A stretch of DNA of 32,000 bases, taken from assembly GCF_000017305.1 (NCBI RefSeq), contig NC_009664.2, forward strand, positions 4,410,001 through 4,442,000. The letters are read 5' to 3'. This document shows, piece by piece, positions 3,661 to 26,720 of this stretch. A model generated the notes under the pieces. It was given only the letters and a program-made list of their open reading frames with translations. It did no database searches and was not told the DNA's origin. Origin of the DNA: Kineococcus radiotolerans SRS30216 = ATCC BAA-149. GTDB lineage: Bacteria > Actinomycetota > Actinomycetes > Actinomycetales > Kineococcaceae. The translations under genes were made by a program, and so were the position numbers. Within the stretch, counting starts at the first letter, position 1; each line of letters begins with the position of its first letter.

Positions 3661-4169
3661 CGCGCCATTGTGGCACCGGAGGTGGTCCGCTGCGGTGGGC
3701 CCGGCGATGCGGTCGGGGAGGACCGCTGTCCTCGTCCGCGGGCGCTCGTCGATCTCCGCAGCTCGCGGGCCGTTCCTGCTCGACCAGGGCCACGGGCACC
3801 AGGAGGGTCGAGCTGTGCTGCCCCCGCGACCTCGGTCGTCGCTCTCGGCTGGTGAGGTGCCTCTCGTCCGGCGGCGTGCGCTTTCGTGCTGGTCGATCGC
3901 ACCGCATGCACCGCGCGATGAGGGGCAGGTCCGAAGTGCTCCACGATGAGGGATCGTCCCACGAGGTCGTCGGCGGTGTGGTCGGCGAGGTAGCCCGCTC
4001 CTCCGGCGGTCCTGACCTTCCCCTGGAGGGTCAGGAGGCGGTGCTTCGAGGTCTCTTCGATGCGCTGCTGCAGCGCAGGCCAGTCATCGACTCGCGTCCT
4101 GGACGTCGTGATCGGGTTGCAGCAGCCGTCACCCGCTCTGCGCCTCACCTCTGGGCCACGCGCCACCTG

Positions 4170-4188
4170 CGGGATGACCGTGAGCCAG
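4170..4188 (+). repeat. Boundary repeat core, copy 1 (outlier, 3' side of the binding-protein gene)
   Basis: GCGGGATGACCGTGAGCCA, preceded by CGCGCCACCT. Confidence 0.7.
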
Positions 4189-14569: not shown

Positions 14570-14641
14570 CCGCGCGGTTCACCGACTGGACGGACATCGG
14601 CATGACCACGGTGCCGCCGGCCCCCAGGGACCGCCCGTATC

Positions 14642-14660
14642 GCGGGATGTCCGTGCGTTC
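14642..14660 (+). repeat. Boundary repeat core, copy 3
   Basis: GCGGGATGTCCGTGCGTTC, with the related box ATGACCACGGTGCCGCCGG at 14602-14620. Confidence 0.8.
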
Positions 14661-14872
14661 CAACTGCACGCACCACGATGGCGGCCGGTCAGCCCACGTG
14701 GAACTGCCGGTCTCGGCTGCGAACACCGCTGGGACCGGAGTGCCCGCCGGCGCGGTCTCTTCGTGATGCGGCCGCGGGTCCGGTTGCTGTGGGTCCAGTC
14801 GCCAATCTCAGACGGTTGCAGCAGCCCTGACGTGAGTCGGGGACAATTCGGTCGTCCCGTGATCCTGTTCGC

Positions 14873-15499
14873 TCAGGACGGCAGGGGTTCGCGGTGGCGG
14901 CTGCTGAGCCCGTCGAGGGAGATCGTCATCAGCCGCCGCCAGCGGCGCTCGTCGCCGACGGTCTGCACCGTGGTGCACAGCGATCCGCTGAGGGAGAGCA
15001 GGTCCTCGGTGCTCACCCCGGGGCGGAGGACTCCCGCCTGCTCACACCGCTGGCGCAGTGCGTCGATGAACACCCGGCACTTGTGCACGCAGGACTCCGT
15101 CGGGCCGCCGGTCTGGACGTAGCTGTCCATCAGTGCGCGGTTGTGGGCCTGGGTGGTCAACACCTGCTCGAAGAACCCCGACAGCGCCTGCCAGGGGTCC
15201 TCCGTCGCTGCGGCGCGTTCGTGGGCCTGGGTGAGCCAGGCGGTGAACTCCTGCTCCAGGCTCAGGCGGAGCAGGTCCTCCTTGGAAGGGAAGTGGCGGT
15301 AGAGGGTGCCCATGCCCACCCCGCTGCGCCGGGCGATCTCGCGCACGTCCACGTCCGCGCCGTGCTCGGCGAAGACGGCGGTGGCGGCCGTGATGATCGC
15401 GGCCCGGTTGCGTTCGGCGTCGGCTCGTCGCCCACGCGGGGCAGCCGGTGCGCCTGCAGCTGGCGCCGTCGTCGGTGCGGCGGCGCGGGGTTCTCTCAC
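14873..15499 (-). CDS. TetR-family transcriptional regulator
   Basis: RRADAERNRAAIITAATAVFAEHGADVDVREIARRSGVGMGTLYRHFPSKEDLL. Confidence 0.9.
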   Translation of the reverse strand: MREPRAAAPTTAPAAGAPAAPRGRRADAERNRAAIITAATAVFAEHGADVDVREIARRSGVGMGTLYRHFPSKEDLLRLSLEQEFTAWLTQAHERAAATEDPWQALSGFFEQVLTTQAHNRALMDSYVQTGGPTESCVHKCRVFIDALRQRCEQAGVLRPGVSTEDLLSLSGSLCTTVQTVGDERRWRRLMTISLDGLSSRHREPLPS

Positions 15500-15530
15500 T
15501 CCCTCAGGATACGCCCGAGTCGGGAGATGC

Positions 15531-15577
15531 GGAGCAGCTGCTCCGGTCGTGCTACGTTCAAGAGGAGCGCCTGCTCC
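15531..15577. promoter_or_regulatory. Pair of palindromic operator-like sites between divergent TetR and reductase genes
   Basis: Perfect 14-bp palindrome GGAGCAGCTGCTCC (15531-15544) and related GGAGCGCCTGCTCC (15564-15577), 33 bp apart. Confidence 0.6.
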
Positions 15578-15628
15578 GCTTGTCCCGTCTTCGGGGACGG
15601 CGCACCTGCAGATCAGACGGAGAGCACC

Positions 15629-16396
15629 ATGACCACCCTGGGCATCATCGGTAGCGGCAGCATCGGCACCGCCATCGCACGACTCGCCATCGCAGCCGGA
15701 CTGGACGTGGTCCTGTCGAACTCACGGACCCCGGACACCCTGACGGAAACGGTGGCTGCCCTCGGCGCAGCCGCACGCGCGGCCACACCGGAAGAAGCGG
15801 CCCGAGCCGGGGACCAGGTCGTGGTCGCCGTCCCCCTGACCGCCTACCGCTCCCTGCCCGTCGCCACCCTGCAGGGCAAGGTGGTCCTGGACACCATCAA
15901 CTACTACGCCACCCGTGACGGGCACATCGAGGACCTGGACTCCGGACGGATCACGACGTCCGAGCTCGTCCAGGCCCACCTGCTCGGAGCCCGCACGGTC
16001 AAGGCCTTCAACAACATCGCCGCCTTCCACATCCCCGCCCTGGCCCGCCCGGCCGGGGCAGCCGACCGGTCGGCGTTGCCGATCGCCGGGGACGACGCCA
16101 TGGCTAGGGCGGAGGCAGCGGATCTCATCGGTCGTCTCGGGTTCGACACCGTCGATGCCGGTCCGCTCTCGCAGAGCTGGCGCTTCGAACCCGAGACCGC
16201 CGCCTACGCGCCGGCGTACGCCGCTGACCCCGCGGCGGTGCTGCGGGGCTGGCAGCAGATGGTGGACGACTTGCGCGCGGGCCGGGCTCCGCGGCTGCCC
16301 GCCCCCGACGCCGGCTCCCCCTTGTCCGCTGCGCGACTGGGGAAGCTGCTGGCCGGTGCCGAGCGCAAGCTGACCGCTGACCGGATCGTGGCCTGA
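15629..16396 (+). CDS. NADP oxidoreductase, coenzyme F420-dependent-like (NAD(P)-binding Rossmann protein)
   Basis: ATG 15629 preceded by GGAGA. MTTLGIIGSGSIGTAIARLAIAAGLDVVLSNSR..., VKAFNNI..., LPIAGDD..A...A..LIGRLGFDTVDAGPL. The track ORF 14894..16396 has an antisense-of-TetR artefact as its N-terminus. Confidence 0.8.
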   Translation: MTTLGIIGSGSIGTAIARLAIAAGLDVVLSNSRTPDTLTETVAALGAAARAATPEEAARAGDQVVVAVPLTAYRSLPVATLQGKVVLDTINYYATRDGHIEDLDSGRITTSELVQAHLLGARTVKAFNNIAAFHIPALARPAGAADRSALPIAGDDAMARAEAADLIGRLGFDTVDAGPLSQSWRFEPETAAYAPAYAADPAAVLRGWQQMVDDLRAGRAPRLPAPDAGSPLSAARLGKLLAGAERKLTADRIVA

Positions 16397-16551
16397 GCCC
16401 CTTCCAGCGCCACAGACGCGGGCCGGCGGGTCCGAGGAGGCACTACCAGTGGCGCGGGAGCCGGTCGAGCTGTTGTCCAGCACGATGCGCCCGCAGCGCG
16501 CTCATCGGCAAGACCGCGACGTCGCCGGCTGTCCACGACCGCGCACCGAGC

Positions 16552-16570
16552 GCGGGATGACCGTGCGTTC
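16552..16570 (+). repeat. Boundary repeat core, copy 4
   Basis: GCGGGATGACCGTGCGTTC, with the box AAGACCGCGACGTCGCCGG at 16510-16528. Confidence 0.9.
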
Positions 16571-16637
16571 CGGCTGTGTGGTGCCAGGGCGGAGGCGGTG
16601 AACGGCCCCCTGGTGGGCCTGAACCCGACATGATCGG

Positions 16638-17093
16638 TTGATGACCCACCCCGTGACGCGCCCACGGCCGCTGCGGCCCCACCGGCCGGCGCGAGCGGTT
16701 GTCATCGTCTGCGTCCTCGTGGCCCTGGTACTCGGGGGTCTCCACGCCTACCGCGCAGCGCGACCGTGCGGGGTGGGCGTCGGGGACCCGGAGGATGCGG
16801 TGTTCGGGGTGCTGCGGGCCATTGAGGGCGAGGACGAGCGCGGTCTGTGTCAGCGCGTAGGCGCGGGCTACACCATTTCCACCGTCCAGGATCAGACCTT
16901 GCGTCAGCGGATCGAGGCAGCCGGTGGAGCCGGCGCCCTCAGGGTCGAGGACCAGGAGGAGCAGCAGTTGGGAGCTCAGCACCTGCTGTCGGTGAGCACG
17001 CAGGACGGTGAGGTCGTCGCTCAGTTCCAGACCCTCATCGGTGAGCGTGGGGCGATCGTCGTGGCTGTGACCACGTCGCCTGGGCAGTGGTGA
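16638..17093 (+). CDS. Cassette ORF: hypothetical protein with an N-terminal transmembrane anchor
   Basis: High-GC3 + frame. AVVIVCVLVALVLGGLHAY helix, then a soluble domain. The overlapping minus ORF 16443..17162 looks like its antisense shadow. Confidence 0.55.
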   Translation: MMTHPVTRPRPLRPHRPARAVVIVCVLVALVLGGLHAYRAARPCGVGVGDPEDAVFGVLRAIEGEDERGLCQRVGAGYTISTVQDQTLRQRIEAAGGAGALRVEDQEEQQLGAQHLLSVSTQDGEVVAQFQTLIGERGAIVVAVTTSPGQW

Positions 17094-17113
17094 CGTCATC
17101 AACGTGCCGGGTA

Positions 17114-17132
17114 GTGGGATGACCGTGAAGTC
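17114..17132 (+). repeat. Boundary repeat core, copy 5
   Basis: GTGGGATGACCGTGAAGTC. Confidence 0.9.
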
Positions 17133-17165
17133 GCAGGCTGGTCCCGCGCCGTCGCAGCACACCAG

Positions 17166-17546
17166 CTAATCCCGGATCGTGTCGGTGGCTTGCGACCACC
17201 TGCAGCGCCAGGTGCCCTCATCCTCGCGCACGTACACGTCGAGGTGCCAGCACTCCAGATGGCCGCCACCACCTGACATTGCGATGTCGATGACGGACAG
17301 GTACCTGACGACAGCGACGGACTCCGATGCTTCGACCTGGATCTCGGACTGCGGTTCGAAGCGTGCGTAGTCGATGCTCCCGTCGTACAGGCCGCTGAGG
17401 TAGGTCTGTCGGTCCCAGAGGTCGCCGCTGGGGGTGCAGAGCACGAAGTCGGCGTGGTGCAGGTCTTCGAGGACGTGGCGGTCGACGTCGACGATTGCTC
17501 GAAGTCGGGTCCGTTCCAACTCGACGATGTTCACGGCTCGACCCAA
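17166..17546 (-). CDS. Cassette ORF: NTF2-like / DUF4440 (SnoaL-like) small protein
   Basis: LERTRLRAIVDVDRHVLEDLHHADFVLCTPSGDLWDRQTYLSGL...VAVVRYLSVIDI...WHLDVYVREDEGTWRCRWSQAT matches the DUF4440/NTF2-like pattern. The start is TTG 17546 or GTG 17534. Confidence 0.7.
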   Translation of the reverse strand: MGRAVNIVELERTRLRAIVDVDRHVLEDLHHADFVLCTPSGDLWDRQTYLSGLYDGSIDYARFEPQSEIQVEASESVAVVRYLSVIDIAMSGGGGHLECWHLDVYVREDEGTWRCRWSQATDTIRD

Positions 17547-17632
17547 GAGCGGCCCGCTGCGGGCGGACTCTCAGCCGTGGGACGTCCGTAGGGACGTGCA
17601 GACGCACTGACCCAAGGATGATCGCGCGGACT

Positions 17633-17651
17633 GCGGGATGACCGGAAGGTC
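17633..17651 (+). repeat. Boundary repeat core, copy 6
   Basis: GCGGGATGACCGGAAGGTC, immediately preceded by the partial duplicate GGATGATCGCGCGGAC. Confidence 0.85.
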
Positions 17652-17732
17652 GCCAGCTTGCTGCGGGCGCCCCCCCCGTGGGCACCACGGGGTGCCGCAT
17701 CGACCGTCGGGTGCGATCCGTAGGGTCGCGGG

Positions 17733-18248
17733 GTGGCGCACCTGATCAACCCCCGAGCCAGTGTCGCGGTCTCGCTGCGAGCCGTCGCCGCAGAGCCGGG
17801 CTGGGACGAGCACTCCGTCTACGTCGGCGCCGCCGACCGCGACGATGCGGCCTTCGCCGCGTGGGTGGATGAGCTCATCGACGACGCCCGGGCCGGCTCA
17901 CCCCGCCCGGACGGCTTCGTCCCCTCCACGAACCTGTGGTGGGTGGAGGGTGAGCAGTACCTGGGGCGGGTGCAGATCCGGCACCGCCTGACCCCGTTCC
18001 TGCGCGAGTTCGGCGGTCACATCGGCTACTACGTCGTGCCCAGGGAGCGGCGGCGTGGGCACGCGACCGCCATCCTCGCTGCCGCCCTGCCGGTGGCGGC
18101 GGCGCTGGGCATCGAGTGCGCGCTGGTGACCTGCGATGTGGGCAACACCGCCTCGCGCAGGACGATCGAGGCCAACGGGGGCCTGTTCCAGGATCAGCGT
18201 GGACCGAAGCTGCGCTACTGGGTACCTACCGGCCCCACCCTCACGTAG
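17733..18248 (+). CDS. Cassette ORF: GNAT-family acetyltransferase
   Basis: LWWVEGEQYLGRVQIRHRLTPFLREFGGHIGYYVVPRERRRGHATAILAAALPVAAALGIECALVTCDVGNTASRRTIEANGG, a GNAT core with R-x-x-G-x-A. GTG start. Confidence 0.8.
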   Translation: MAHLINPRASVAVSLRAVAAEPGWDEHSVYVGAADRDDAAFAAWVDELIDDARAGSPRPDGFVPSTNLWWVEGEQYLGRVQIRHRLTPFLREFGGHIGYYVVPRERRRGHATAILAAALPVAAALGIECALVTCDVGNTASRRTIEANGGLFQDQRGPKLRYWVPTGPTLT

Positions 18249-18324
18249 CCGTACTCGCGCACGGCTCCGAGGACCACCGAGAGCCTCTGCCAAGGCCCTC
18301 TGGTTCGTGGGAGGAGCGCGCACC

Positions 18325-18343
18325 GCGGGATGACCGTGAAGTC
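18325..18343 (+). repeat. Boundary repeat core, copy 7
   Basis: GCGGGATGACCGTGAAGTC preceded by GCGCGCACC; it abuts the stop codon at 18346-18348. Confidence 0.9.
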
Positions 18344-18345
18344 AG

Positions 18346-18855
18346 TCAGCTCGGAGAGTCCTTCGGTTGAAGCTGGTCCAGTCGGGCTTGAGCGAGCTGG
18401 CGGATGCGGCGGGTGCGCCCGGAGTCGGCGAGGGCTCGTAGGTGCGGCGGTGAGTCGCTGTGGTGGGAGAGCTGGCGCTGGGTCCAGTCGTCGAGCTCGG
18501 CCAGGGACAGGGGCGTCTGCGGGTTCTCCTGCAGGTGTTTGAGGGTCAGCCACTGCTGGGCGCGGTGGTGGCAGTAGCTGTCGGCGGGGAAGAGGTCCTC
18601 GTGCTGTCGCAGCCACGCGGTGAAGGACGCGGCGCTGGATCGCTGCGCGGCGACACGGTCGAGGTGGTCGACAGCGGCGGCGTCACCGGCGAGCTGGTCG
18701 GGATCGTTGAGCGCGGCGGTGAGAGCGGCGTGGTCGTGGTCGATGTCGGCGCTGCGCAGTTCTTGCAGGTGGTGTTGGTGGGTGGCCACGTCGGGTGGCA
18801 CGTCCTCGTCCGTCACTCTTTTCAGCGTGCCTGATGGGCACGAGGGCCTCGACAT
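18346..18855 (-). CDS. Cassette ORF: hypothetical protein
   Basis: 169-codon high-GC3 ORF with no family recognised. An alternative start GTG 18816 is preceded by GAAAAGAG. Confidence 0.6.
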   Translation of the reverse strand: MSRPSCPSGTLKRVTDEDVPPDVATHQHHLQELRSADIDHDHAALTAALNDPDQLAGDAAAVDHLDRVAAQRSSAASFTAWLRQHEDLFPADSYCHHRAQQWLTLKHLQENPQTPLSLAELDDWTQRQLSHHSDSPPHLRALADSGRTRRIRQLAQARLDQLQPKDSPS

Positions 18856-18888
18856 CGCGTGCTCAAGGCGCCCGCAACGTGCTGGCCA

Positions 18889-18907
18889 GCGGGATGACCG
18901 CGAGGTC
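18889..18907 (+). repeat. Boundary repeat core, copy 8
   Basis: GCGGGATGACCGCGAGGTC. Confidence 0.9.
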
Positions 18908-18980
18908 GGCGTCCTGGGCGCCCACCCTTCCCGCTGCGGCAGGGGTAGTCGTTGACGGTCTCCGTGGCTAGCGTGCAGGG

Positions 18981-19361
18981 GTGCGAGGTGAGCGTCTCGG
19001 CATCGTCAGCTTGCGGCTCGACGCGTTCTACTGCGTCCTGGTGGGGCTTCTCGTCGCCGCCTCGGCGGCGGTGAGCGCGCCGCACGTGGGGTTGGCGGCC
19101 CCGGTGGTCGCAACGCTCGGGGTCGTGGTGGTGGCCTGGGGTGTTCTGGTCTGGGTGCTTACCTCCAGGTTGCCGTTGGTTCGTGCGCTGCAGTTGGTGG
19201 CCGCGGCGAACGTGGTGGTTGCGCTGGGGTTGACCGTCGTGTCGACGTGACTGGTGGGTGTCGTCGTGGTCCTGACCGTCGTGGTGGTCGCGGTCGACGT
19301 CGCTGCCTTCGCCGCGACGCAGGGAGTTGCCCGGCGGCGTTTGCTGCAGTCGAGCTGCTGA
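18981..19361 (+). pseudogene. Cassette ORF: small 4-helix membrane protein with an in-frame TGA (19248-19250)
   Basis: GTG 18981. FYCVLVGLLVAASAAV, VVATLGVVVVAWGVLVWVL, LQLVAAANVVVALGLTVVST, then TGA. The same frame continues with high GC3 as LVGVVVVLTVVVVAVDVAAFAATQG...* to 19361. Confidence 0.5.
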
Positions 19362-19413
19362 GCCGTGTGCCACCGATCGTGGCTGCTGGGCCTGGCCGTG
19401 TCGTGTCCGGAGT

Positions 19414-19432
19414 GCGGGATGACCGTGAGGTC
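19414..19432 (+). repeat. Boundary repeat core, copy 9
   Basis: GCGGGATGACCGTGAGGTC. Confidence 0.9.
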
Positions 19433-19444
19433 AGCGGACCGTGA

Positions 19445-19828
19445 TCACCTGCAGAAGCGGATCGGCGTCGGGCCGGGGTCACGGCGGAGAGCTTGCTCCC
19501 AGGCGGCGTCGTCGACATCGATGTGATCGCCGAGGGAGGCGATGAAGATGACCTCGGCCACCGCCGGCTGATGCTCGACCCAGTCGCGGACTCGGCGGTA
19601 GGACCCTTCGGCGCTGCTCATGCGGTTGCCGTCGTCCTGCCAGCTACCGCTCCAGACGTCGTCGTCGTGGGGTGGCATGACCCGTACGGTCCCGTGCCCA
19701 GGACGCGGCGGCGGGTAGATCGTGGGCTGAAGGCCCGTTTCCAGCAGTCGGGTGCGTTCCTCGGCGGTCTGAGCGCGCAGCTCCGGTGGCAGGTAGTCCT
19801 GGTAGAGCGGACCGCTGAACTCGGGCAT
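19445..19828 (-). CDS. Cassette ORF: hypothetical protein
   Basis: 127-codon ATG-initiated high-GC3 ORF (MPEFSGPLYQDYLPPELRAQ...); no family recognised. Confidence 0.65.
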   Translation of the reverse strand: MPEFSGPLYQDYLPPELRAQTAEERTRLLETGLQPTIYPPPRPGHGTVRVMPPHDDDVWSGSWQDDGNRMSSAEGSYRRVRDWVEHQPAVAEVIFIASLGDHIDVDDAAWEQALRRDPGPTPIRFCR

Positions 19829-19912
19829 GTGATCAGGATGATCGCCGAGGGCAGAGACTGCCAGTGCCTGCTCGTGTCGAGGCGATCCCAGCGGCGGCAG
19901 AGCGCGCGGACG

Positions 19913-19931
19913 GCGGGATGACCGTGCGATC
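19913..19931 (+). repeat. Boundary repeat core, copy 10
   Basis: GCGGGATGACCGTGCGATC preceded by GCGCGCGGAC. Confidence 0.9.
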
Positions 19932-19986
19932 GGCTACGGCGTGCGGCAGCCCCTAGGACTGAGGCACTCGGGCAGTGGGGTGGGTG

Positions 19987-20652
19987 TCACCACCACCGGG
20001 CGCCGTGGACGACGCGGTGCGGTGAGCGGCCCGTCCGGGCGTCCTCGAGGAGCTGCTCGACGTGACCGAGACCGTCGCTGTCGTCGGCGGCGTTGGCCTG
20101 CCAGCCGCGACTGTCACCGAAGGCGGTGAGGCGGGGGGTGTTGACGTGGACGAAGTCGCCCGTGACGACGCCGAGGAGGTGCTCGTCGAGCTCGGTCAGG
20201 AGGTGTTCAGAACCGTCGTCGCAGGCATCGCACCCGCAGGCGGGCACAGTGGCCAGGGGGACGGCGGGCTGACCGGCGCTGATGGTGACGAGGTTGTCGT
20301 CGGGGCCGTCGAAGCCGCGGAAGCTCAGCACGAGGGGGACAGCGTTCTGCTGGTGCGGACGCAGTCGGTGGGCGCGGACGGGGGCGATGCCTGAAGGAGA
20401 GCCGTCGCGCCACGTGTCGTGCTCGCGGGTGAGGTCGATGGGCTCGAGAGTGGCCAGTCCTGCCTCGGTGAGGACTCGCGTCCAGGCGTTGGCCCGGGCG
20501 GTGAGGATGCGGTACTTGGCGGGGTCGAGGCAGCGGGAGTACTCCTGCGGGTCGGGCTCGTGGTCGGGGTGGGGGTCGGGCCAGGCCGCCGTGGACGCCG
20601 GGTCCTGCTCGAAGGCGGCGTCGACGGCTGCGCGCAGAGTGTCCTGATCCAC
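19987..20652 (-). CDS. Cassette ORF: hypothetical protein with a CGCDACDDG motif (possibly DUF6226-like)
   Basis: 221-codon very high-GC3 ORF. The conserved-looking VPACGCDACDDGSEHLLTELDEHLLGVVTGDFVHV suggests the family, but that assignment is from memory and tentative. Confidence 0.65.
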   Translation of the reverse strand: MDQDTLRAAVDAAFEQDPASTAAWPDPHPDHEPDPQEYSRCLDPAKYRILTARANAWTRVLTEAGLATLEPIDLTREHDTWRDGSPSGIAPVRAHRLRPHQQNAVPLVLSFRGFDGPDDNLVTISAGQPAVPLATVPACGCDACDDGSEHLLTELDEHLLGVVTGDFVHVNTPRLTAFGDSRGWQANAADDSDGLGHVEQLLEDARTGRSPHRVVHGARWW

Positions 20653-20734
20653 GGCGGGAGCCTAGGACGGATGCTGCGCCGCGGGCCGTTGGTGGTGCCC
20701 ATGCACGGTGCGGGGAGCATCTGGTCCTCGGCAT

Positions 20735-20753
20735 GCGCGGACGATCACCCCGG
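20735..20753 (+). repeat. Possible decayed boundary repeat, copy 11
   Basis: GCGCGGACGATCACCCCGG resembles the copy-10 flank plus core with an internal deletion. Confidence 0.3.
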
Positions 20754-20850
20754 CTCTGGAGACCTCGATCCGGCCTCCCTGCTCAGCACCGCCGCGCTCC
20801 TCCACGTCCACGAGACGCGACCCTGCTGAGGCGGACCGCCAGCCCGCGCC

Positions 20851-21720
20851 TCACGCCCGAGGACGGCGGTACGCCTCCAGCTGCTCGGCCGGGAGCTTGG
20901 GCACCGCGTGGACAGGGGTGGCCGGTGCCCCTCCGCTCACCCGGTCGCCAGCCTCGTCGCGAGCCTCGTCGGGGGCCGGCGGGAGGACCGTCTCACCCGT
21001 CGCCCCCGGTGGTGCCCCGCTCGCGGCACCGGTCGGCGCCGGGTCCACCGGGTCCACCGGGACCGGACCGGCGGTGTTGGCGGTGTCGGTGGTGTCGGCG
21101 GTGTCCGGTCGCCTGTCCTGCACCCGCCACAGCACCAGGGCCGAGGCCAGCGACAGCACCGTTGTCACCGCCAGCAGCGCCAGGACGGGGGCGATCTGGA
21201 GCAACCCGCCGGTGTTCGGCAGCAGGTAGGTCCGCTGCAGGTTCCCGAACGGCTCGCTGAGCGGTTCGTTGGTCAGGTCGAACAGCATCACCAGGCACAG
21301 CGCGCTCTCCACCGCTGTCAGCGCCGCCGCCCCCGCCGCGACCCGACCGGCCCAGCGGGAGGGTACGAGCCAGCCGGGCCGCCCCGCCGCGATCAGGGCC
21401 GCCAGCGCCACGAGCGCCAGCGAGGAGGCCAGCAGGGCCTCCGGCACCGCCACCGTCGCCCACAGCAGGCGGAACCGCACGGAGAAGGTGAAGTCGATCC
21501 GGGTGCGCAGCGTCTCCTCCGAGACGTAGCTGCCGAAGTAGACCGTGTCCGCGCCGCCGGTCAGGAAACGCCGGAACACCTCGGCCAGGACCACCGCGCT
21601 GGCGGCCGCGCCAGCGACGAGCGACCACGGCACCCACACCAGTGGACCCCGCCCCTCCGGCTTTCCCGTCCCCTCCTCGTCGGGCTGGGAGGTCTCGGGC
21701 TGCCCGCTCCGGTCGTCCAC
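20851..21720 (-). CDS. Multi-pass membrane protein with a Pro/Asp/Thr-rich C-terminal tail
   Basis: GTG 21720 with about 4 hydrophobic helices. The C-terminal repeats DTADTTDTANTAGPVPVDPVDPAP are encoded by short tandem DNA repeats at about 21040-21115. TAGGTT (minus strand, 21727-21732) lies 6 nt upstream of the GTG, suggesting a leaderless-type -10. Confidence 0.7.
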   Translation of the reverse strand: MDDRSGQPETSQPDEEGTGKPEGRGPLVWVPWSLVAGAAASAVVLAEVFRRFLTGGADTVYFGSYVSEETLRTRIDFTFSVRFRLLWATVAVPEALLASSLALVALAALIAAGRPGWLVPSRWAGRVAAGAAALTAVESALCLVMLFDLTNEPLSEPFGNLQRTYLLPNTGGLLQIAPVLALLAVTTVLSLASALVLWRVQDRRPDTADTTDTANTAGPVPVDPVDPAPTGAASGAPPGATGETVLPPAPDEARDEAGDRVSGGAPATPVHAVPKLPAEQLEAYRRPRA

Positions 21721-21766
21721 GTCTTGAACCTACGGCGAAGGCGTCGGGCCGTCGCGCCAGGACCGC

Positions 21767-21787
21767 GGGGGGGGGGGGGGGGGGGGG
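21767..21787 (+). repeat. Homopolymeric G21 tract (C21 on the minus strand)
   Basis: 21 consecutive G, located 47-67 nt upstream of the minus-strand start at 21720. Confidence 0.95.
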
Positions 21788-21865
21788 AACCTTCAGGTCC
21801 CGGCGGTCGGCGCGAGGTCCTCTTCCGACCTGGTCGCCGTCGCCGCAGGCGTCACCGGCAGACCC

Positions 21866-21877
21866 GACCGTGAGGTC
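21866..21877 (+). repeat. Partial boundary repeat (3' half only), copy 12
   Basis: GACCGTGAGGTC is identical to the 3' 12 nt of copy 9. Confidence 0.4.
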
Positions 21878-21899
21878 GATGGCGCGAGGTCGATGGCGC
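21872..21899 (+). repeat. Perfect 14-nt tandem duplication
   Basis: GAGGTCGATGGCGC x2 (21872-21885, 21886-21899), starting inside the partial boundary repeat. Confidence 0.9.
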
Positions 21900-21998
21900 G
21901 TGGAGGGCGCCGGGACCGCGACGTCGCGGACGTCGTGTGGACGGTCGTCGACGTCCTGGCTCGCGCCACGACCGCGACGTCGTCCGGAGCGCCGGGGG

Positions 21999-22017
21999 GC
22001 GGCATGACCCTGAAAGA
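21999..22017 (+). repeat. Boundary repeat core, copy 13 (diverged)
   Basis: GCGGCATGACCCTGAAAGA, with the box ACGACCGCGACGTCGTCCGG at 21968; it abuts the stop codon at 22018-22020. Confidence 0.6.
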
Positions 22018-22302
22018 TCAGTCTCCGCTGGGTGCGGCGGCGTCATCGCGAACGCGTGGGCGGCTGAGCCGGAAGAGGCCGATGCAGACGCCCATGAGGA
22101 GGCCGGCAGCGATGATGCTCGGCCAGTGCGGCAGCCGCAGGTCTGTGAGGTATCGCCCCGTGAGCGCTACCACCACAGCGGCCACGAAGCGGAGCCACCA
22201 CGGCCAGCCGCCGACACCGCGAGGACCGTTCCACGCTCGCGCCCACCGTGCGAGCTGCTGTCTGGGCACGACGACACCTGGCCGCAGGCCCTGCTCCAAC
22301 AC
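22018..22302 (-). CDS. Cassette ORF: small two-helix membrane protein
   Basis: WPWWLRFVAAVVVALTGRYL and HWPSIIAAGLLMGVCIGLFRL helices; GTG start 13 nt from repeat copy 14. Confidence 0.5.
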   Translation of the reverse strand: MLEQGLRPGVVVPRQQLARWARAWNGPRGVGGWPWWLRFVAAVVVALTGRYLTDLRLPHWPSIIAAGLLMGVCIGLFRLSRPRVRDDAAAPSGD

Positions 22303-22314
22303 TGCGCGCGCACC

Positions 22315-22333
22315 GCGGGATGACCGCGTGTTC
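22315..22333 (+). repeat. Boundary repeat core, copy 14
   Basis: GCGGGATGACCGCGTGTTC preceded by GCGCGCGCACC. Confidence 0.9.
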
Positions 22334-22359
22334 GTGTCGTGCGGCTGGGGGGCTGACTG

Positions 22360-22680
22360 TCAGGAGGCGGTCGTACCGCGGGCGCTCGCCTGATCGTTGG
22401 GTGGGCTGTCGGGCTTCAGCGGCAAGGCCGGGGAAGGCGCGTTTCCGCCCGCGGTGATTTCTACGGCGATCGAGTCCCACTGGTACACCTCGGCTCCCGC
22501 AGCCGGGTGCTGAGAGGTGATGTAGAACAGACCCGGCCAGGCGAGGGCACCGATCGGTGGTCCATCGGGGTCTGGGTTGGTGAGGGTCACGCCCGCGTCG
22601 CTGGCGACGTCCCGGCCGATGTGGAAGGGCAGTCCCACTACGTCGGGAACGACCACGCGGGGTGCAGCGCGCTCACTCAT
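22360..22680 (-). CDS. Cassette ORF: PASTA-domain-like small protein
   Basis: VVVPDVVGLPFHIGRDVASDAGVTL...ITSQHPAAGAEVYQWDSIAVEI follows the PASTA pattern (vPdvvGl...a...l...G..v......Q.P.aG..v....v.l.v). Confidence 0.55.
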   Translation of the reverse strand: MSERAAPRVVVPDVVGLPFHIGRDVASDAGVTLTNPDPDGPPIGALAWPGLFYITSQHPAAGAEVYQWDSIAVEITAGGNAPSPALPLKPDSPPNDQASARGTTAS

Positions 22681-22840
22681 CTTTGCAGGCTACCCACTCC
22701 GCGTTTCGGATCGAGGGGCGCAGACAGCAGGAGGTCCGTGAGTTATCGCATCAAGAAGTTGTGAGCCCCGCTCATCTGCCGTACCACTTGGCTGTTGACA
22801 TGACCGCTGCGTCGACAGATCAGTCAGGACCGCCCGGGTC

Positions 22841-22859
22841 GCGGGATGACCGTGAAGTC
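22841..22859 (+). repeat. Boundary repeat core, copy 15
   Basis: GCGGGATGACCGTGAAGTC, with the box ATGACCGCTGCGTCGAC at 22800-22816. Confidence 0.9.
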
Positions 22860-22985
22860 GTTGGTCGGCGGCGGTAGTCCTAGTGGTGGTGCTGATGCGT
22901 CTAGCAGCCGCCGCGCCCTTATCGCGTGATCTTCCTGCAGCGGCGGTTCGCCATCCTCTACGGTCAAGCAATGGGAGCCGCCACC

Positions 22986-23495
22986 ATGTCCACGCAGGTC
23001 AGAGCGCACAGCCAGGGACGCAGTAGCGACCTCCCCGCTCGTGGCCTCGGTCTTGCCCTGGCGGCTCTTGCCCTGACCGTCGGCGCGGCCTGCTCAGCCC
23101 AGGAGGAGACCGGTGTCTCCACGACGCAGATGGATGAAACAACGCGGCTCGCTTCCACGGCCGCCAGCACCGCGACGGGCATCACCGCGGCGGACATCAC
23201 GCGTCCCCAGGAAGGGATCAGCGCCGTTGGTGGAGACGCGAGCACCACCACGAGTGTTTCAATCGGGTTGACGGCGAACGCGACTTTCCGCGCCTTCACG
23301 GTGTGCACCGGCGGCGGAGACCTCGAGCTGGACCTGGCGGGCACTGCGCAGGAGCTGGCGTGTGACGGCCAGGTCCGAGAAGTCGCCGAGCTTGTGGTCC
23401 CGGACACCGGGAGCGTCCAGTTCAAGCCGAGTCGTGTCAACGATTTCGCGTCGGCGTCGGCGTCGGCGTGGGCTGTGGCGTTCGCCCCTGCGTGA
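22986..23495 (+). CDS. Cassette ORF: putative secreted lipoprotein
   Basis: ATG 22986 preceded by GGGAG. Signal peptide MSTQVRAHSQGRSSDLPARGLGLALAALALTVGAAC. The track ORF begins at GTG 22926. Confidence 0.6.
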   Translation: MSTQVRAHSQGRSSDLPARGLGLALAALALTVGAACSAQEETGVSTTQMDETTRLASTAASTATGITAADITRPQEGISAVGGDASTTTSVSIGLTANATFRAFTVCTGGGDLELDLAGTAQELACDGQVREVAELVVPDTGSVQFKPSRVNDFASASASAWAVAFAPA

Positions 23496-23683
23496 ACCGA
23501 CGGACCTCAACTGCTGCGGCCACCAGCCCGTGGTCGTCGGCACCCGATGGACCCGGTGGCGGCTCTGGAGGTGGTTCTGCTGATGGCTCGACGCGACTGA
23601 CTCAGGAGCGGTAGCCCTAGCGTGCTCGCACGGCCAGCGACAAGACCGCGACGCCGCAGGCCGCCGGCAACAGCACGCACAAC

Positions 23684-23702
23684 GCGGGATGACCATGAGG
23701 TG
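23684..23702 (+). repeat. Boundary repeat core, copy 16
   Basis: GCGGGATGACCATGAGGTG preceded by GCACGCACAAC, with the box AAGACCGCGACGCCGCAGG at 23642-23660. Confidence 0.85.
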
Positions 23703-23734
23703 CGCCTGAACTCGCCCAGTGGGTGCGTGCGACC

Positions 23735-24169
23735 TCAGTCCTGGTTGGCCCAGATCGTGGCGACCAGAGTGCTGTTCTCATCTCGGCACTGATCTGTGGC
23801 GGCGCGGAAAGCGGCGTCTGCTGCTTGGGGGTCAGCTTCGTCTTCGTAGCTGGCGGTGACGGTGAAGCCCAGCTCTCCATCACCCCAAGCCAAGCTGGAG
23901 GGCTCGTAGCCGGCGGCGCTGACGCAGTCGCGTTCTGCAGTGAGAGCTTGCTCGTACTCACCGCCGCTCACCTGGCCGTCCTCCAGGATTGCCGCCTGTG
24001 GCGCGGGAGCGTCCTGGGCCAGCTGTGCGATGGCCGTGGGGTCGTTGACCGCCTGCAGGGCCCGGGCGGTGGGACTGTCCGGGGCCAGGCCGTTGGAGCA
24101 CGCGGTGAAGGGCAGGAGGGCCGCTCCGGTGAGTACGAGCACAGCGAGGTGTCGCCGGGGGTGTCGCAT
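23735..24169 (-). CDS. Cassette ORF: putative secreted lipoprotein
   Basis: ATG 24169 preceded by GGAGGA. MRHPRRHLAVLVLTGAALLPFTACSNG lipoprotein signal. The track ORF 23735..24667 extends upstream through non-coding sequence. Confidence 0.7.
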   Translation of the reverse strand: MRHPRRHLAVLVLTGAALLPFTACSNGLAPDSPTARALQAVNDPTAIAQLAQDAPAPQAAILEDGQVSGGEYEQALTAERDCVSAAGYEPSSLAWGDGELGFTVTASYEDEADPQAADAAFRAATDQCRDENSTLVATIWANQD

Positions 24170-24324
24170 GGGTCCTCCTGCAGCCAGTGATCTCAGCATC
24201 GTGTCAGCTGGCAGGGCGATCAGGACCACTCCGAGGGGTCGCGAGAACGCAAATCCAGGTCGAATGACCGCCTGGTCATCGGCAGATCCGGTCGTCGTCA
24301 ACCCCCGGGGCGACCGCGCACAAC

Positions 24325-24343
24325 GCGGGATGACCGTGGAGTC
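24325..24343 (+). repeat. Boundary repeat core, copy 17
   Basis: GCGGGATGACCGTGGAGTC preceded by GCGCACAAC, with the box ATGACCGCCTGGTCATCGG at 24264-24282. Confidence 0.9.
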
Positions 24344-24402
24344 GCACAGAGCGCGGCGAGAGGTCTCCGGCCGCGGTTGCGCCAAAGACATGGAGAGGCA
24401 TC

Positions 24403-24854
24403 TCACCTCAGCCCACTCCAGTCGATGTCGATCCAGACGTCGCGCGACGATCGAGGCCATGGCGCTGGCACCAGGCATGCCTGGGTGATGCCTGCAGCGA
24501 GCAGCTCCTCGCGCACCAGGGTCACGATTGCCTGGCCCATCGGTGGGGAGATGAAGCCATCCGCGTCGATGTGGATCCACGGTCCCTGCGGGTCTCGGTA
24601 GACGGGACTGATGTAGCTGGGAGTGTTCAGGGGTCGGGGCGAGAGTAGTTCTGACTCGCCTCCTCAACGGTGAGGAAGACCTGGCCGTTTTCGGCGATGA
24701 GCATCAGGCGTGGCGCTGCTCGGGCTGGAGCGTGAGCAGCCGCCTCGGGGTCCTCGCAACGGATCAGCAGGCTCTCGTCCTCGTTGAGCCACGGCTCGAC
24801 ACCGGGGAGGGGACCGAAGAGGCCGGGAGCGGCTTCGACGTGGTGCGCGGGCAC
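24403..24854 (-). pseudogene. Cassette ORF: hypothetical protein split by one frameshift
   Basis: ORF 24627..24854 (MPAHHVEAAPGLFGPL...TVEEASQNYSRPDP*) continues after a -1/+2 shift at the G-runs 24630-24639. The continuation reads PLNTPSYISPVYRDPQGPWIHIDADGFISPPMGQAIVTLVREELLAAGITQA...IDWSGLR* and ends at 24403. Confidence 0.5.
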
Positions 24855-25055
24855 GTTGTCAGCATGACGCGGTCAGTCCCGCAGTGGGGCCGACTGCGGG
24901 GGGCAGCCGCCTACGCCAGGCAGACGGATGGCTCGTGCTCGCAGCCGAGCGGTGCATGAGGACCTCGCTGCGTGCGGGTGATCATCGCGTCTCGACAACC
25001 ACTTGCTCGTTGACATGAGAGTGACGTTGTAGCCGTCCCCGGTTGCGCCCGTACT

Positions 25056-25074
25056 GCGGAATGACCGGATATCA
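25056..25074 (+). repeat. Boundary repeat core, copy 18 (diverged, last of the array)
   Basis: GCGGAATGACCGGATATCA, with the box ATGAGAGTGACGTTG at 25015; it overlaps the stop codon 25072-25074. Confidence 0.6.
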
Positions 25075-25545
25075 GCGCAGTCGAGGTCGCGGCCGGCTGG
25101 TGGCTCCTGGGGCGGGTCCTCGCCGACGCTCGTCGGCGGGCAGGGGCGGGTCGCCCCACCACCACACTCCGTCCTCGTCGGGGGCCATCGACTCCAGTAC
25201 CGAGCCCAGGGGCTCCTCGATGTCGGAGGTCGCGATGTTGTCGGCGAGGTCCACAGCGGGATCGACGTCGGGTGCGGGCAGGTTCAAGGGGTAGTTCTCG
25301 ACCTCGTCGAGGTGGCGGCGTAGGCCGGTGGTGAAGTCCCACCAAGGGTGGTGGTACACCACGTGCAGCACCGGGTGCCCGTCGTGGACGCCGGCCCAGG
25401 ACCGCACCACGTGGACCCGGCCGCCGGTGGCGGGCAGTTGCCGGGCGGGGTCGGTGAGCTGGCGCAGGAGAGCGGTGTGGACGTCGTCGGCCCACCGCTG
25501 CGGGTCGTCTCGGATGCGGGCTGAGGCTTCTGGTGCGGCGTCCAT
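25072..25545 (-). CDS. Cassette ORF: hypothetical protein
   Basis: 157-codon ATG ORF (MDAAPEASARIRDDPQRWADDVHTALLRQL...HVVYHHPWWDF...); no family recognised. Confidence 0.55.
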   Translation of the reverse strand: MDAAPEASARIRDDPQRWADDVHTALLRQLTDPARQLPATGGRVHVVRSWAGVHDGHPVLHVVYHHPWWDFTTGLRRHLDEVENYPLNLPAPDVDPAVDLADNIATSDIEEPLGSVLESMAPDEDGVWWWGDPPLPADERRRGPAPGATSRPRPRLR

Positions 25546-25554
25546 GGCCTTGTT

Positions 25555-25577
25555 CTACCGGTCAGGCTGACCGGTAG
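25555..25577. terminator. Perfect 23-bp palindrome / hairpin
   Basis: CTACCGGTCAG G CTGACCGGTAG, between the YhcG-like stop (25582) and the start of the next minus-strand ORF (25545). Confidence 0.5.
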
Positions 25578-25581
25578 GTCG

Positions 25582-26720
25582 TCAGTGGTCGTTGCTGTCG
25601 TGGTTGTCGGCGCTCGCGGGCGGTGGGGGTGTCTCGTCGAGGGCGTCGTCCAGGGCGTCGGTGAGGGCGTCGGTGAGGTCGCTGCCGAGCTGGTCGCTGA
25701 GCTGGGTGGGGTTGGCAGGCTGGCTTGTTGGTCGGGGGGGAGGGTGTCGTAGGTGTAGGTGGCCACCGCCATGGGGGCGGGCGCGCCGGCGAGGGCGTAG
25801 CGGACGACGTGTTCGTCGCGGTCTTTGCAGAGCAGGATCCCGACGGTGGGGGCGTGCACGGTGGGGTCGCGCAGGCGGTCGTCGATGAGGGCGACGTAGG
25901 CGCCGAGCTGTCCGGTGTACGCGGGGGTGAAGCGCCCGATCTTGAGTTCGATGACGATGTAGCGGACTTGGGGGATGTGGAAGAGGATTCCACGGCGCAG
26001 GGCGCCGCGGCTCCTGTCGATGATCATCTCTTCTTCACCGACGGTGAAGCGGACTTGGCGTCCGACGAAGGCCATGCCGTGCCCGAACGCGGTCAGCGTC
26101 TGCTGCAGGCGGTCGACGAGGCCTTGCTCCATCGCCCGTTCGCTGGCGCGGTCGGTGAGGGCGAGGTGGTCGAAGACGTAGGGGTCGCGGGTGAGCTGCT
26201 GGGCGAGCTCGGAGTCCGGCTGGGGCAGCTGGGCTTCGAAGTTGGAGGGGGCGGCGCCGATGCGGGTGTGCAGCCCCGAGTCGATCTGGTTGGCCAGGAC
26301 GTCGCGGGACCAGCCCTGCTGGAGGGCGTGGGTGGCGTACGAGTCGCGGGTGGCGCGCTCGTCGAGGCGGCCGAGGAGGACGGTGAGGTGACCCCAGGGC
26401 AATCGTGCAACGGCTTGTTGCACGAAGCCGGCTTCCTCGGGCCAGGCGGTGGCGGCGGCGCGCATGTACTGCAGGTTGCGGCGGGAGAAGCCGCGCTGAT
26501 CGGGGAACGCTCGGCGGAGGTCGTGGGCGAGGCGGTCGATGACCTTCGCGCCCCACCGGCGTCGTGTTGGCGGGTGAGGATGTCGTGGCCGATGGACCAG
26601 TACAGCCGCAGGAGCTCGATGTTGGCGGCGCGCGCGGCGCGCACCCGTGAGGTGGCGACACGGGCCTTGAGCTGCTCGAGCAGCTCGGCGTAGCCCTCGG
26701 GCAGGTCAACTGCGAGGTCG
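25582..26720 (-). pseudogene. YhcG-like DUF1016 PD-(D/E)XK nuclease-domain protein with at least 2 frameshifts
   Basis: Three frames join into one family-typical sequence. N-terminal: YAELLEQLKARVATSRVRAARAANIELLRLYWSIGHDILTRQHDAG. After a shift near 26556: WGAKVIDRLAHDLRRAFPDQRGFSRRNLQYMRAAATAWPEE...VRYIVIELKIGRFTPAYTGQLGAYVALIDDRLRDPTVHAPTVGILLCKDRDEHVVRYAL. After a shift near 25713-25740: NPTQLSDQLGSDLTDAL...NDH*. No clean start codon; possible further extension to ATG 26813 in yet another frame. Confidence 0.7.

Follow-up and report, generated by a model that had tools for sequence, protein, structure and literature searches.

The window, by which we mean the whole 32 kb stretch of Kineococcus DNA that was analysed, carries small genes divided by an oriented intergenic repeat in an array spanning 14.6 to 25.1 kb. 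We found 13 significant and two diverged copies of this repeat on the + strand (~0 expected), and none on the minus strand in scans of the whole 32 kb window with the 19-mer core, a 9-mer, nhmmer and a long-form model. With up to three mismatches allowed, the 19-mer core had 10 matches in the window against 0.04 expected. The 9-mer, GGGATGACC, had 13 matches rather than the 12 counted earlier, all on the + strand and against 0.37 expected, in agreement with the earlier estimate that it occurs beyond chance; a copy at 27656, within an ORF, was counted as chance.

The initial annotation had placed the core on the + strand at 16552, 17114, 17633, 18325, 18889, 19414, 19913, 22315, 22841, 23684 and 24325, and all 11 positions were confirmed, as was its claim that no copy in the window is inverted. 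It had the array start near 16510. A copy at 14642 had been overlooked, and the array therefore begins ~1.9 kb further left and takes in a cassette with a TetR regulator and an F420-dependent oxidoreductase. Among the copies it called diverged, those at 21999 (E=6e-5) and 25056 (E=3e-8) were recovered by the long-form model, the one at 21866 proved to be a right half-site only, and the one at 20735 was unsupported. Rfam models gave no match to the window at gathering thresholds and, at E<=1, one chance miRNA match. The sites and genes are as follows.

4157..4188, +: isolated genuine site at 4169 (9-mer at 4171) in array orientation, between LacI regulator and solute-binding protein genes (nhmmer E=8e-5)
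14630..14661 (long form from 14582), +: site 1, left array end, core GCGGGATGTCC at 14642 (nhmmer E=4e-4; long-form model E=1.6e-17)
14872..16395: two-gene divergent cassette, TetR regulator 14872-15345 (-) and F420-dependent oxidoreductase 15628-16395 (+) (Pfam; gene calls on Logan contig L256)
16494..16573, +: site 2, long form, upstream module cTCATCGGCAAGACCGCGACGTCGCCGGC then core at 16552 (E=3e-19)
16799..17092, +: cassette ORF, 97 aa, no family
17102..17133, +: site 3, GTGGGATGACC (19-mer scan and nhmmer)
17165..17533, -: cassette gene, DUF4440/NTF2-like
17621..17652, +: site 4 (19-mer scan and nhmmer)
17733..18248, +: GNAT acetyltransferase cassette gene
18313..18344, +: site 5, perfect 19-mer
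18346..18855, -: cassette ORF, 169 aa, no family
18877..18908, +: site 6 (19-mer scan and nhmmer)
18981..19250, +: cassette ORF, 89 aa
19402..19433, +: site 7 (19-mer scan and nhmmer)
19445..19828, -: cassette ORF, 127 aa
19901..19932, +: site 8 (19-mer scan and nhmmer)
19987..21720, -: two-gene interval, DUF6226 gene 19987-20652 and 289-aa ORF 20851-21720, with no supported site between them by nhmmer or the long-form model
21866..21880, +: half-site GACCGTGAGGTCGAT, right half only (nhmmer E=0.13)
21949..22018, +: site 9, diverged long form, core GCGGCATGACC at 21999 (E=6e-5)
22018..22302, -: cassette ORF, 94 aa
22303..22334, +: site 10 (9-mer scan and nhmmer)
22360..22680, -: cassette ORF, weak PASTA match
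22781..22860, +: site 11, long form, perfect 19-mer core at 22841 (19-mer scan and long-form model)
22926..23495, +: cassette ORF, 189 aa, homologue in the L004 array
23623..23703, +: site 12, long form (19-mer scan and long-form model)
24265..24344, +: site 13, long form, GGTCATCGGCAG...GCGGGATGACC (19-mer scan and long-form model)
24996..25075, +: site 14, right array end, diverged long form, core GCGGAATGACC at 25056 (E=3e-8)
25072..25545, -: last small ORF, 157 aa, no family

Anatomy and orientation of the site

The site is about 30-32 nt long and reads aGCGCGCacaac-GCGGGATGACCG-tGAnGTCG (consensus aGCGCGCacaacGCGGGATGACCGtGAnGTCG), with an extra upstream module in about a quarter of copies. 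A 32-nt logo built from 109 exact-core copies in at least 15 Kineococcus species has 12 invariant positions. Two variants are symmetrical: a perfect 13-6-13 palindrome at 3587-3618 of L081, GCGGCATGACCGC-GACGTC-GCGGTCATCCCGC, and a second site class in K. gypseus, an 11-8-11 palindrome with at least 13 direct copies. Judged by sequence, this geometry fits a tyrosine-recombinase core. The strong invariant 13-bp arm GCGGGATGACCGY would bind the recombinase and adjoin a 6-bp spacer, GAnGTC, the second arm would be weak and unconserved, and the module ~45 nt upstream in about a quarter of sites may hold further degenerate binding sites. Two features count against this reading: ordinary sites have just one conserved arm, and the spacer varies at +14 and +15, so that full two-strand exchange should be blocked.

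We found no sign of an attC-type hairpin at the sites. Complementarity to the core was no higher upstream than downstream, arm-to-arm complementarity was at control level, fold z-scores were near 0, RNAalifold gave a 4-bp stem only and no covariation was seen. The boxes RYYYAAC...GTTRRRY are absent from the site consensus, and an inverted GGTCATC box occurs in only ~25% of sites.

Arrays of these sites occur several to a genome. Inside arrays there is one site per intergenic gap and outside almost none, the isolated copies between ordinary genes being those at 4169 of the window and in L025, L055 and L065. The even scatter and colinear relatives expected of a generic motif were not found; the motif is clustered and relatives are not colinear. 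Across loci, 124/126 sites match the majority orientation of their own locus, and a single head-to-head pair, in L081, accounts for the inverted copies. Gene strand does not follow: of 57 Kineococcus cassettes, 31 have the gene on the strand of the motif, and in the other 26 it is on the complementary strand. The earlier description of the core as a 3' gene boundary is thus true within the window but not in general. REP/BIME elements with an associated RAYT were rejected, with no supported hairpin, no HUH match in ~358 kb of Kineococcus DNA around arrays and inverted copies only as the one L081 pair.

Two observations raise the question of single-stranded intermediates. Tandem 'empty' sites lie 26-34 nt apart in L260 (five) and L269 (18), a spacing that cannot stem from double-stranded circles and so counts against the recombinase model favoured below. 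In addition, cassettes are G-rich on the motif strand irrespective of gene strand (+0.069, +0.076, +0.088), and the skew follows the motif strand in 29/34 loci. An HUH-type enzyme (IS200/IS605-, RAYT- or Rep-like) that nicks the conserved core and moves cassettes as single strands would explain the single orientation and the strand asymmetry. All sites of a locus sit on one strand, tandem units of this size would be feasible only through single-stranded intermediates, and the K. gypseus palindrome could form a hairpin. Against such an enzyme, no HUH gene was found with an IS608 TnpA seed in ~358 kb of Kineococcus DNA around arrays, nor in Pfam summaries, a hairpin is unsupported for type-1 sites, and the skew of flanking DNA is itself weakly associated with site orientation (17/25 loci, p=0.11). 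We regard it as very improbable.

Exchange of cassettes between species

All-against-all blastn identified ~45 blocks of single-cassette size common to different species and contigs at 75-97% identity. The neighbourhoods of these blocks differ between species, and neighbouring cassettes of one array have their best matches each in different loci. For example, the GNAT cassette at 17633-18343 is found again, complete from one site to the next, in L035, L259, L260 and L263, each time beside unrelated neighbours. Even the closest relative found, L259, whose GNAT protein is 93% identical, has only that cassette in common, site to site. In K. aurantiacus, a 71% homologue belongs to an ordinary operon that has no sites.

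To locate the breakpoints, we examined 24 (12+12) boundaries of shared cassettes. Identity was ~0.25 outside and 0.6-0.9 inside, and the switch fell between -1 and +13 of the core, within its invariant part, such that the left flank goes with the left cassette and the sequence from +13 onward with the right one. Breakpoints inside the core, which had been proposed as a check, are thus seen in the comparison between species, and these alignments identify the cassettes as discrete mobile units, bounded by the site and exchanged between species. As is usual for cassette platforms, the cassettes carry GNATs, toxin-antitoxin pairs, immunity proteins (WapI and SMI1_KNR4), enzymes of resistance type and many orphans.

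Breakpoints in an identical 12-nt stretch would also be expected from homologous exchange at a repeat. The site could therefore be a REP-like intergenic element with another primary role (protein binding, RNA stability or a polar chromosomal signal), its mosaicism a by-product of homologous or microhomology-mediated exchange with no dedicated recombinase. The isolated copies among ordinary genes fit this view, as do the tandem mini-arrays of bare sites, which look like BIME-like clusters, the resolution of breakpoints in the sole perfectly identical 12 nt, and the lack of a recombinase near most arrays. However, nearly every boundary has been used although identity over 12-30 nt does not exceed the minimum that RecA-dependent exchange requires. 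The one-site-per-gap distribution, the absence of REP-type inverted pairs and hairpins, the distinct palindromic class filling the same role in K. gypseus and the co-occurrence of a tyrosine recombinase with related sites in three genera also argue against a REP-like element, which we consider unlikely.

The invariant 11-12 nt also acts like a target duplication around every unit, and a short inverted motif, GTGCGC...GCGCAC, lies at the ends of empty units. A cassette might then be a non-autonomous transposon that inserts one way into the target GCGGGATGACC and duplicates it. Ordinary cassettes showed end-to-end complementarity no better than controls, and we know of no precedent among DDE elements for an 11-12 bp duplication specific in sequence and orientation. 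Alternatively, the sites could be targets or donors of IS110-family RNA-guided recombinases, since IS110-family transposases with site copies on their flanks lie inside the L265 and L266 arrays; these enzymes move their own element, and they were found in a minority of arrays only. Transposition in either form is, in our estimation, the least credible of the explanations weighed here.

A candidate recombinase

Pfam and profile searches found no recombinase gene in the 32 kb window, as noted earlier from its ORFs, nor in the 5 kb beyond its right end, and most arrays examined had none within +-10 kb. An Xer-like tyrosine recombinase does lie inside arrays of four Kineococcus species (L048, L081, L265 and L267/L268). 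It was rejected as XerC/D (117 bits against a cutoff of 330) and as IntI (TIGR02249, 48 bits against a cutoff of 265, matching its last 60 residues only), and it lacks the IntI insertion. Its homologues from Cellulomonas (81% identity) and Motilibacter (75%) have sites on their flanks whose cores, GCGGCATGACCG and GCGGCATGAGCG respectively, are related; in Motilibacter, GCGGCATGAGCG was found 37 times where 8.4 matches were expected, and 34 of the 37 share a strand. The recombinase thus co-occurs with related sites in three genera, and in 6/6 loci across them its gene runs antiparallel to the sites' top strand. L048 and L081 were picked up through the motif, so independent tests are L265, L267, L266 and L269 only. 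From this association we infer that the Xer-like recombinase is the enzyme acting on the sites. Its family is very large and highly conserved across Actinobacteria (>6400 proteins at E<1e-30) and may therefore serve another role, in which case its presence in arrays may be as cargo.

We think it probable that the region is a site-specific gene-cassette array served by a trans-acting Xer-like tyrosine recombinase. A unit would normally consist of a single gene, sometimes of a pair, read in either direction and presumably from a promoter of its own, and an oriented recombination site of about 32 bp would form its boundary. A 'simple' recombinase of this type, encoded within some Kineococcus arrays and elsewhere than the window, would bind the strong arm in trans and exchange strands at the arm/spacer junction, the likely position of cleavage. 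Two direct sites recombining would release the cassette between them, presumably as a circle, and the same reaction run backwards would place it at any other site of that array or a different one, producing mosaic arrays in which every site points one way.

Relation to known cassette systems

The integron-like layout of single-gene cassettes with co-oriented, non-attC sites proposed initially is supported by the cassette exchange and the failed attC criteria. As in integrons, cassettes are mostly single genes with one site each, all sites are co-oriented, and most of the site moves with one of the two cassettes that meet at the crossover, leaving few conserved bases on the other side. Similar too are the grab-bag cargo, including toxin-antitoxin pairs and acetyltransferases, and the arrays without a nearby integrase (cf. 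CALINs). The intI-attI topology is matched in Cellulomonas and Motilibacter, where the sites lie directly at the 5' end of the recombinase gene and the gene diverges from them. An integron proper was rejected, with no attC hairpin, no RYYYAAC/GTTRRRY boxes and ~50:50 gene orientation. Here, in contrast, no IntI-type integrase adjoins the array, genomes have several arrays with the recombinase within them rather than at one end, and gene orientation in Kineococcus is random, which does not fit expression from a shared promoter of the Pc type.

Among known systems, the nearest precedent is rAID-1 of the Bacteroidales, the clusters for recombinase-associated acquired interbacterial defence (Ross et al. 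2019, bioRxiv 10.1101/471110). In these clusters a conserved tyrosine recombinase of the XerD family accompanies long arrays of small genes, with intergenic repeats 'reminiscent of integrons' and a skewed composition, and the defining arrangement is a recombinase at the 5' end with co-directional low-GC genes behind it; the recombinase criterion is >44% identity to BF9343_RS08045, and its homologues are stated to be restricted to Bacteroidales (bioRxiv 10.1101/471110). Compared by description, both systems have repetitive intergenic sequences between array genes, and WapI and SMI1_KNR4 immunity-type cargo also occurs in the actinobacterial arrays. The latter differ in belonging to Actinomycetota, in having genes both ways and much broader cargo, and in that the recombinase is embedded in the array and absent from most arrays, including the window.

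In the pdif/Xer modules of Acinetobacter plasmids, small gene modules lie between short tyrosine-recombinase core sites of ~28 bp; these sites resemble dif and point in alternating directions, and the gene for the recombinase lies elsewhere. The Kineococcus arrays share the small modules, the short bounding sites and, probably, a recombinase supplied from another locus. A dif-like identity (11-6-11, XerC/XerD) was rejected for the Kineococcus site, all copies of which are direct and show no resemblance to the actinobacterial dif of Frankia, CACGCCGATAATGCACATTATGTCAAGT (PMC3025954). Unlike in pdif modules, the Kineococcus recombinase scores far under the XerC and XerD equivalog cutoffs.

The Kineococcus arrays would thus work like an integron but with a different site and probably an Xer-like recombinase encoded elsewhere. 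To our knowledge, integrons are essentially unknown in Actinomycetota. We tentatively suggest, as a possibility rather than an expectation, that Xer-like recombinases widespread in this phylum run a phylum-wide integron analogue. Its short, double-strand-type sites (13-bp arm plus 6-bp spacer) would have lineage-specific cores (GCGGGATGACCG in Kineococcus, GCGGCATGACCG in Cellulomonas, GCGGCATGAGCG in Motilibacter and the 11-8-11 palindrome in K. gypseus), and promoter-bearing cassettes would be captured into several arrays per chromosome, all polarised alike relative to strand composition.

Site copies in the window and across Kineococcus

The gene cassettes of the array lie between same-direction copies of an oriented ~32-nt repeat (type-1 site, hereafter site for simplicity). 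The 19-mer GCGGGATGACCGTGAAGTC matched the window, whose G+C is ~71%, 10 times at ≤3 mismatches (0.04 expected) and the 9-mer GGGATGACC occurred 13 times (0.37 expected); every one of these copies lies on the + strand, in agreement with the single orientation described in the initial annotation. Searching the window with a site profile made from 109 copies returned 13 significant sites (4159, 14628, 16537, 17116, 17620, 18316, 18887, 19406, 19899, 22303, 22827, 23671 and 24311), and a longer model additionally recovered diverged sites at 21949-22013 and 24996-25068. Two other diverged copies had been listed initially: the one at 20735 found no support in either search of the window, and at 21866 the right half of a site is present but no whole site. 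The array had been placed at 16510-25074. Its right end stands at ~25.1 kb, but a copy at 14642 had been overlooked, so that the array spans ~14.6-25.1 kb. Within it, each intergenic gap contains exactly one site, irrespective of the orientation of the flanking genes. At ~21776-21900, a run of ~12 G precedes a local tandem duplication (two copies of GAGGTCGATGGCGC) that overlaps the half-site at 21866. ARAGORN called a 97-nt tRNA-Ala(TGC) at 21373-21469 (-), within the high-GC3 ORF 20851-21720; this call is probably a false positive.

Features flanking the array in the window
7493-8494 versus 12089-13105, and 13180-13800 versus 14876-15721: left-flank paralogues, along with three short-chain dehydrogenase (SDR) genes
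25284-26705, - strand: YhcG/DUF1016 PD-(D/E)xK nuclease, PADLOC PDC-S02 match, adjoining the array
27413-32000, plus 1-9010 of locus L121: defence-like cluster directly right of the array, comprising a 423-aa protein without family, a HerA/mad8-like ATPase (28834-30936), a 515-aa metallophosphatase, an 829-aa SMC protein like LmuB or mad3, and then a RepA_C protein

In the left flank (6715-14566), genes for MmyB-like regulators, TetR proteins and short-chain dehydrogenases recur as paralogous sets, which suggests local duplication. On the right, the YhcG/DUF1016 frame does not end with the conserved domain but continues for ~140 codons, overlapping ORF 25072-25545, which suggests that its stop is mis-set or that the frame has shifted. 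A 64% identical YhcG/DUF1016 copy borders the array of another locus, L035, with a polarity to the sites opposite to that in the window. We therefore rejected this nuclease as a recombinase candidate in both loci; as a PDC-S02 defence candidate with opposite polarities to the sites, it is probably cargo. To the right of the nuclease come genes similar to components of MADS or Lamassu. Between them and the nuclease lies a gap of ~700 nt (26705-27413) without a convincing gene, where the open frame is Arg/Gly/Pro-rich nonsense and Rfam gave no match.

Scanning one genome per species with the query GCGGGATGACCGYGNRGTC yielded at least 120 loci. Among the matches listed, ~40 loci belong to Kineococcus and come from at least 15 species; the same genome often contributes several contigs, and in several loci exact matches number 2-5 per 8 kb. 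The listed matches outside Kineococcus are single ones in unrelated phyla. Only single chance matches came from a motif scan of viral and metagenome collections, and a PLSDB search for a plasmid origin gave no match. Within the Kineococcus loci, 124 of 126 sites (E<0.05) lie on the majority strand of their own locus, and one genome can contain several arrays. This distribution places the window in Kineococcus; proteins identical to those it encodes were seen only among Logan assemblies of the SRR5887xxx runs.

Mobile cassettes and the anatomy of the site

An all-against-all blastn of the Kineococcus loci revealed ~45 blocks of 250-1000 nt that are common to different species or contigs at 75-97% identity. 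For the window's GNAT cassette (17633-18343), for instance, homology extends from one site to the next in L035 (88% identity), a metagenome relative (L259; 90% nt, 93% aa), Kineococcus sp. SYSU DK002 (L260) and K. gypseus (L263), and its neighbours are unrelated in every locus. Conversely, consecutive cassettes of L260 have their best homologues, in order, in L053/L263, L006, L093, window/L035, L042 and L068, and these homologous blocks meet at sites. A GNAT homologue in K. aurantiacus (71%) sits in an ordinary operon where sites are absent. GNATs and toxin-antitoxin pairs occur as cassettes, as do an APH(6)-like kinase and an AAC(3)-type acetyltransferase. Across 57 Kineococcus cassettes, the gene has the same orientation as the site in 31 cases and the opposite one in 26.

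The initial annotation had proposed looking for breakpoints within the core, and we did so across the Kineococcus loci by comparing 12 boundaries with the shared cassette 3' of the core and 12 with it 5'. Per-position identity was ~0.25 outside the shared cassette and 0.6-0.9 inside it. The flank from -60 to -1 relative to the core moves with the left cassette and everything from +13 onward with the right one. The exchange point, where homology switches, therefore falls either inside the invariant GCGGGATGACCG or at its 3' edge. Exchange at these boundaries could also be passive, with the repeat a REP-like element that offers tracts for homologous recombination, a reading that is less well supported than site-specific recombination.

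A gapless stack of the 109 copies is conserved from -12 to +19 (aGCGCGCacaac / GCGGGATGACCG / tGAnGTCG), with 12 invariant positions and no conservation outside this span. Upstream of about a quarter of sites stands a module, GGnCATCGnCAnGACCGCGACGTCGCCGGC, whose distance is fixed; between -45 and -63, CATCG[AGT]CA was counted 12 times (0 in controls). In L081, a Kineococcus array with a recombinase gene, positions 3587-3618 form a perfect 13-6-13 palindrome, GCGGCATGACCGC-GACGTC-GCGGTCATCCCGC; ordinary sites share the 13-bp arm and a GAnGTC spacer, and their second arm is not conserved. The mapped exchange point falls at the junction of arm and spacer.

The repeat had been said to lack the imperfect-palindrome form of integron attC, and every test of an attC-like hairpin bore this out: single-strand folds of 13 sites gave z-scores of -1.9 to +1.2, inverted core copies were not in excess, covariation was absent, and RNAalifold proposed a stem of only 4 bp. 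For a hairpin with the core in its loop, arm complementarity equalled that of controls. We also rejected a promoter or terminator role (consensus scans found nothing at sites) and a dif-like site (no resemblance to actinobacterial dif, compared with that of Frankia), and Rfam had no match for the site.

A 20-kb array of small ORFs in K. gypseus uses a different site, CCATCTCAGAA-GCGACCGT-TTCTGAGACGG, an 11-8-11 palindrome present in at least 13 direct copies, in which 79% of positions are paired compared with 33-49% in slid controls. There the same boundary of the GNAT cassette is taken by this second-class site, and a single hybrid (n=1) fuses the palindrome with a type-1 core. Sites also occur bare and in tandem, in L035, L093, L052, L060, L036, L260 and Motilibacter; in L035, L093, L260 and Motilibacter they are separated by palindromic spacers of 15-23 nt (e.g. 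GTGCGC-CC-GCGCAC).

Second-class and tandem bare sites
L263 5700-19900 (K. gypseus) and L049 ~6030-6110: second-class site GGnCATCTCAGAAGCGACCGTTTnTGAGACGGCGAC, including one hybrid
L260 12592-12713 (Kineococcus sp. SYSU DK002): five tandem units, 26/29-nt spacing
L269 14954-15560 (Motilibacter peucedani): eighteen 34-nt tandem units
L035 4667/4693 and L093 6273/6299: tandem bare sites

Cassettes are G-rich on the motif strand whatever the gene strand (GC skew +0.07 to +0.09), and T exceeds A on that strand regardless of gene orientation in the Kineococcus array loci and at 18000-21000 of the window. The skew follows the motif strand strongly in array interiors (29 of 34 loci) and weakly in flanking DNA (17 of 25 loci, p=0.11). 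It could stem from replication polarity or from an intermediate that is single-stranded.

A candidate recombinase

No recombinase gene is encoded in the window or within 5 kb past its right end, which extends the initial annotation's failure to see one and takes up the rightward search it had proposed. Using XerD and IntI1 as tblastn seeds, we found one tyrosine recombinase, in the Kineococcus arrays L048 and L081 (the two copies of the gene share 86% DNA identity). It has the Phage_integrase fold, with XerD (PDB 1a0p) its closest solved relative, scores far under the XerC, XerD and integron-integrase cutoffs, and lacks the IntI insertion. Its family is very large, with over 6400 members at E<1e-30. 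When 395 ORFs of array loci were clustered by blastp, no recurrent array-flanking protein family emerged. Serine recombinase and IS200-type seeds had no matches near arrays; an HUH single-strand mechanism is less well supported than the action of the tyrosine recombinase.

Homologues were also looked up independently: the recombinase gene lies within a 19-kb array of ~20 minus-strand sites in K. aurantiacus, and site clusters flank it on both sides in K. endophyticus; in both species a conserved ORF of 176-181 aa accompanies it upstream. Immediately upstream of a homologue in Cellulomonas sp. ATA003 (81% identical) lie two GCGGCATGACCG sites. A second homologue, in Motilibacter peucedani (75% identical), lies in an array-like region of small ORFs, with two GCGGCATGAGCG-type sites directly upstream; matches to this site type number 37 where 8.4 are expected, and 34 share one strand. 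The gene runs antiparallel to the sites' top strand in six of six loci. In three species, a conserved site-like module (read on the strand of the sites as GGTCTTCGGCAGAAGC-GTGAGGTC) directly adjoins the recombinase stop codon.

Features of recombinase-containing loci
L081 2800-2850, L265 11005-11046 (K. aurantiacus) and L048 ~900-950: site-like module at the recombinase stop codon
L265 1264-2577 and 4583-5872: two IS110-family (RNA-guided) transposase genes within the array
L266 2002-3240 and 6143-7213: two IS110-family (RNA-guided) transposase genes within the array

The IS110-family genes of L265 and L266 are mutually homologous, and those of L265 have copies of the array site on their flanks. 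This is reminiscent of IS1111 elements, which target attC. As a source of the arrays themselves, IS110 action or a target-duplicating transposition is less well supported than the tyrosine recombinase.

Mechanism and relation to known systems

The best-supported reading is conservative site-specific recombination, in which the Xer-like enzyme would act on direct sites in trans. Given its weak second arm and variable spacer, the site may undergo exchange of a single strand, which replication would then resolve.

The Kineococcus system works like an integron, but every sequence-level test for membership came out negative, and it differs in its mixed gene orientation (31/26), several arrays per genome and tandem bare sites. 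The rAID-1 cluster of Bacteroidales, in which an XerD-family recombinase accompanies arrays whose genes are set apart by integron-like repeats (10.1101/471110), is the nearest described precedent. It belongs to another phylum and differs in how its genes are oriented, where its recombinase lies and what cargo it carries. Our literature search found no description of a Kineococcus or integron-like actinobacterial cassette system.

Integrons are the textbook gene-capture platform and, to our knowledge, are essentially restricted to Gram-negative lineages. The only other recombinase-associated array type that we know to have been sketched is rAID-1, where site and crossover are undefined. For a high-GC Gram-positive phylum, the present analysis supplies a defined recombination site with a crossover mapped to ~12 nt, clear evidence of cassette exchange between species and a concrete candidate enzyme. 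If confirmed, the system would be a new and simple route by which Actinomycetota trade accessory, defence and resistance-type genes, and it could also provide a compact pair of recombinase and site for use as a tool in high-GC hosts.
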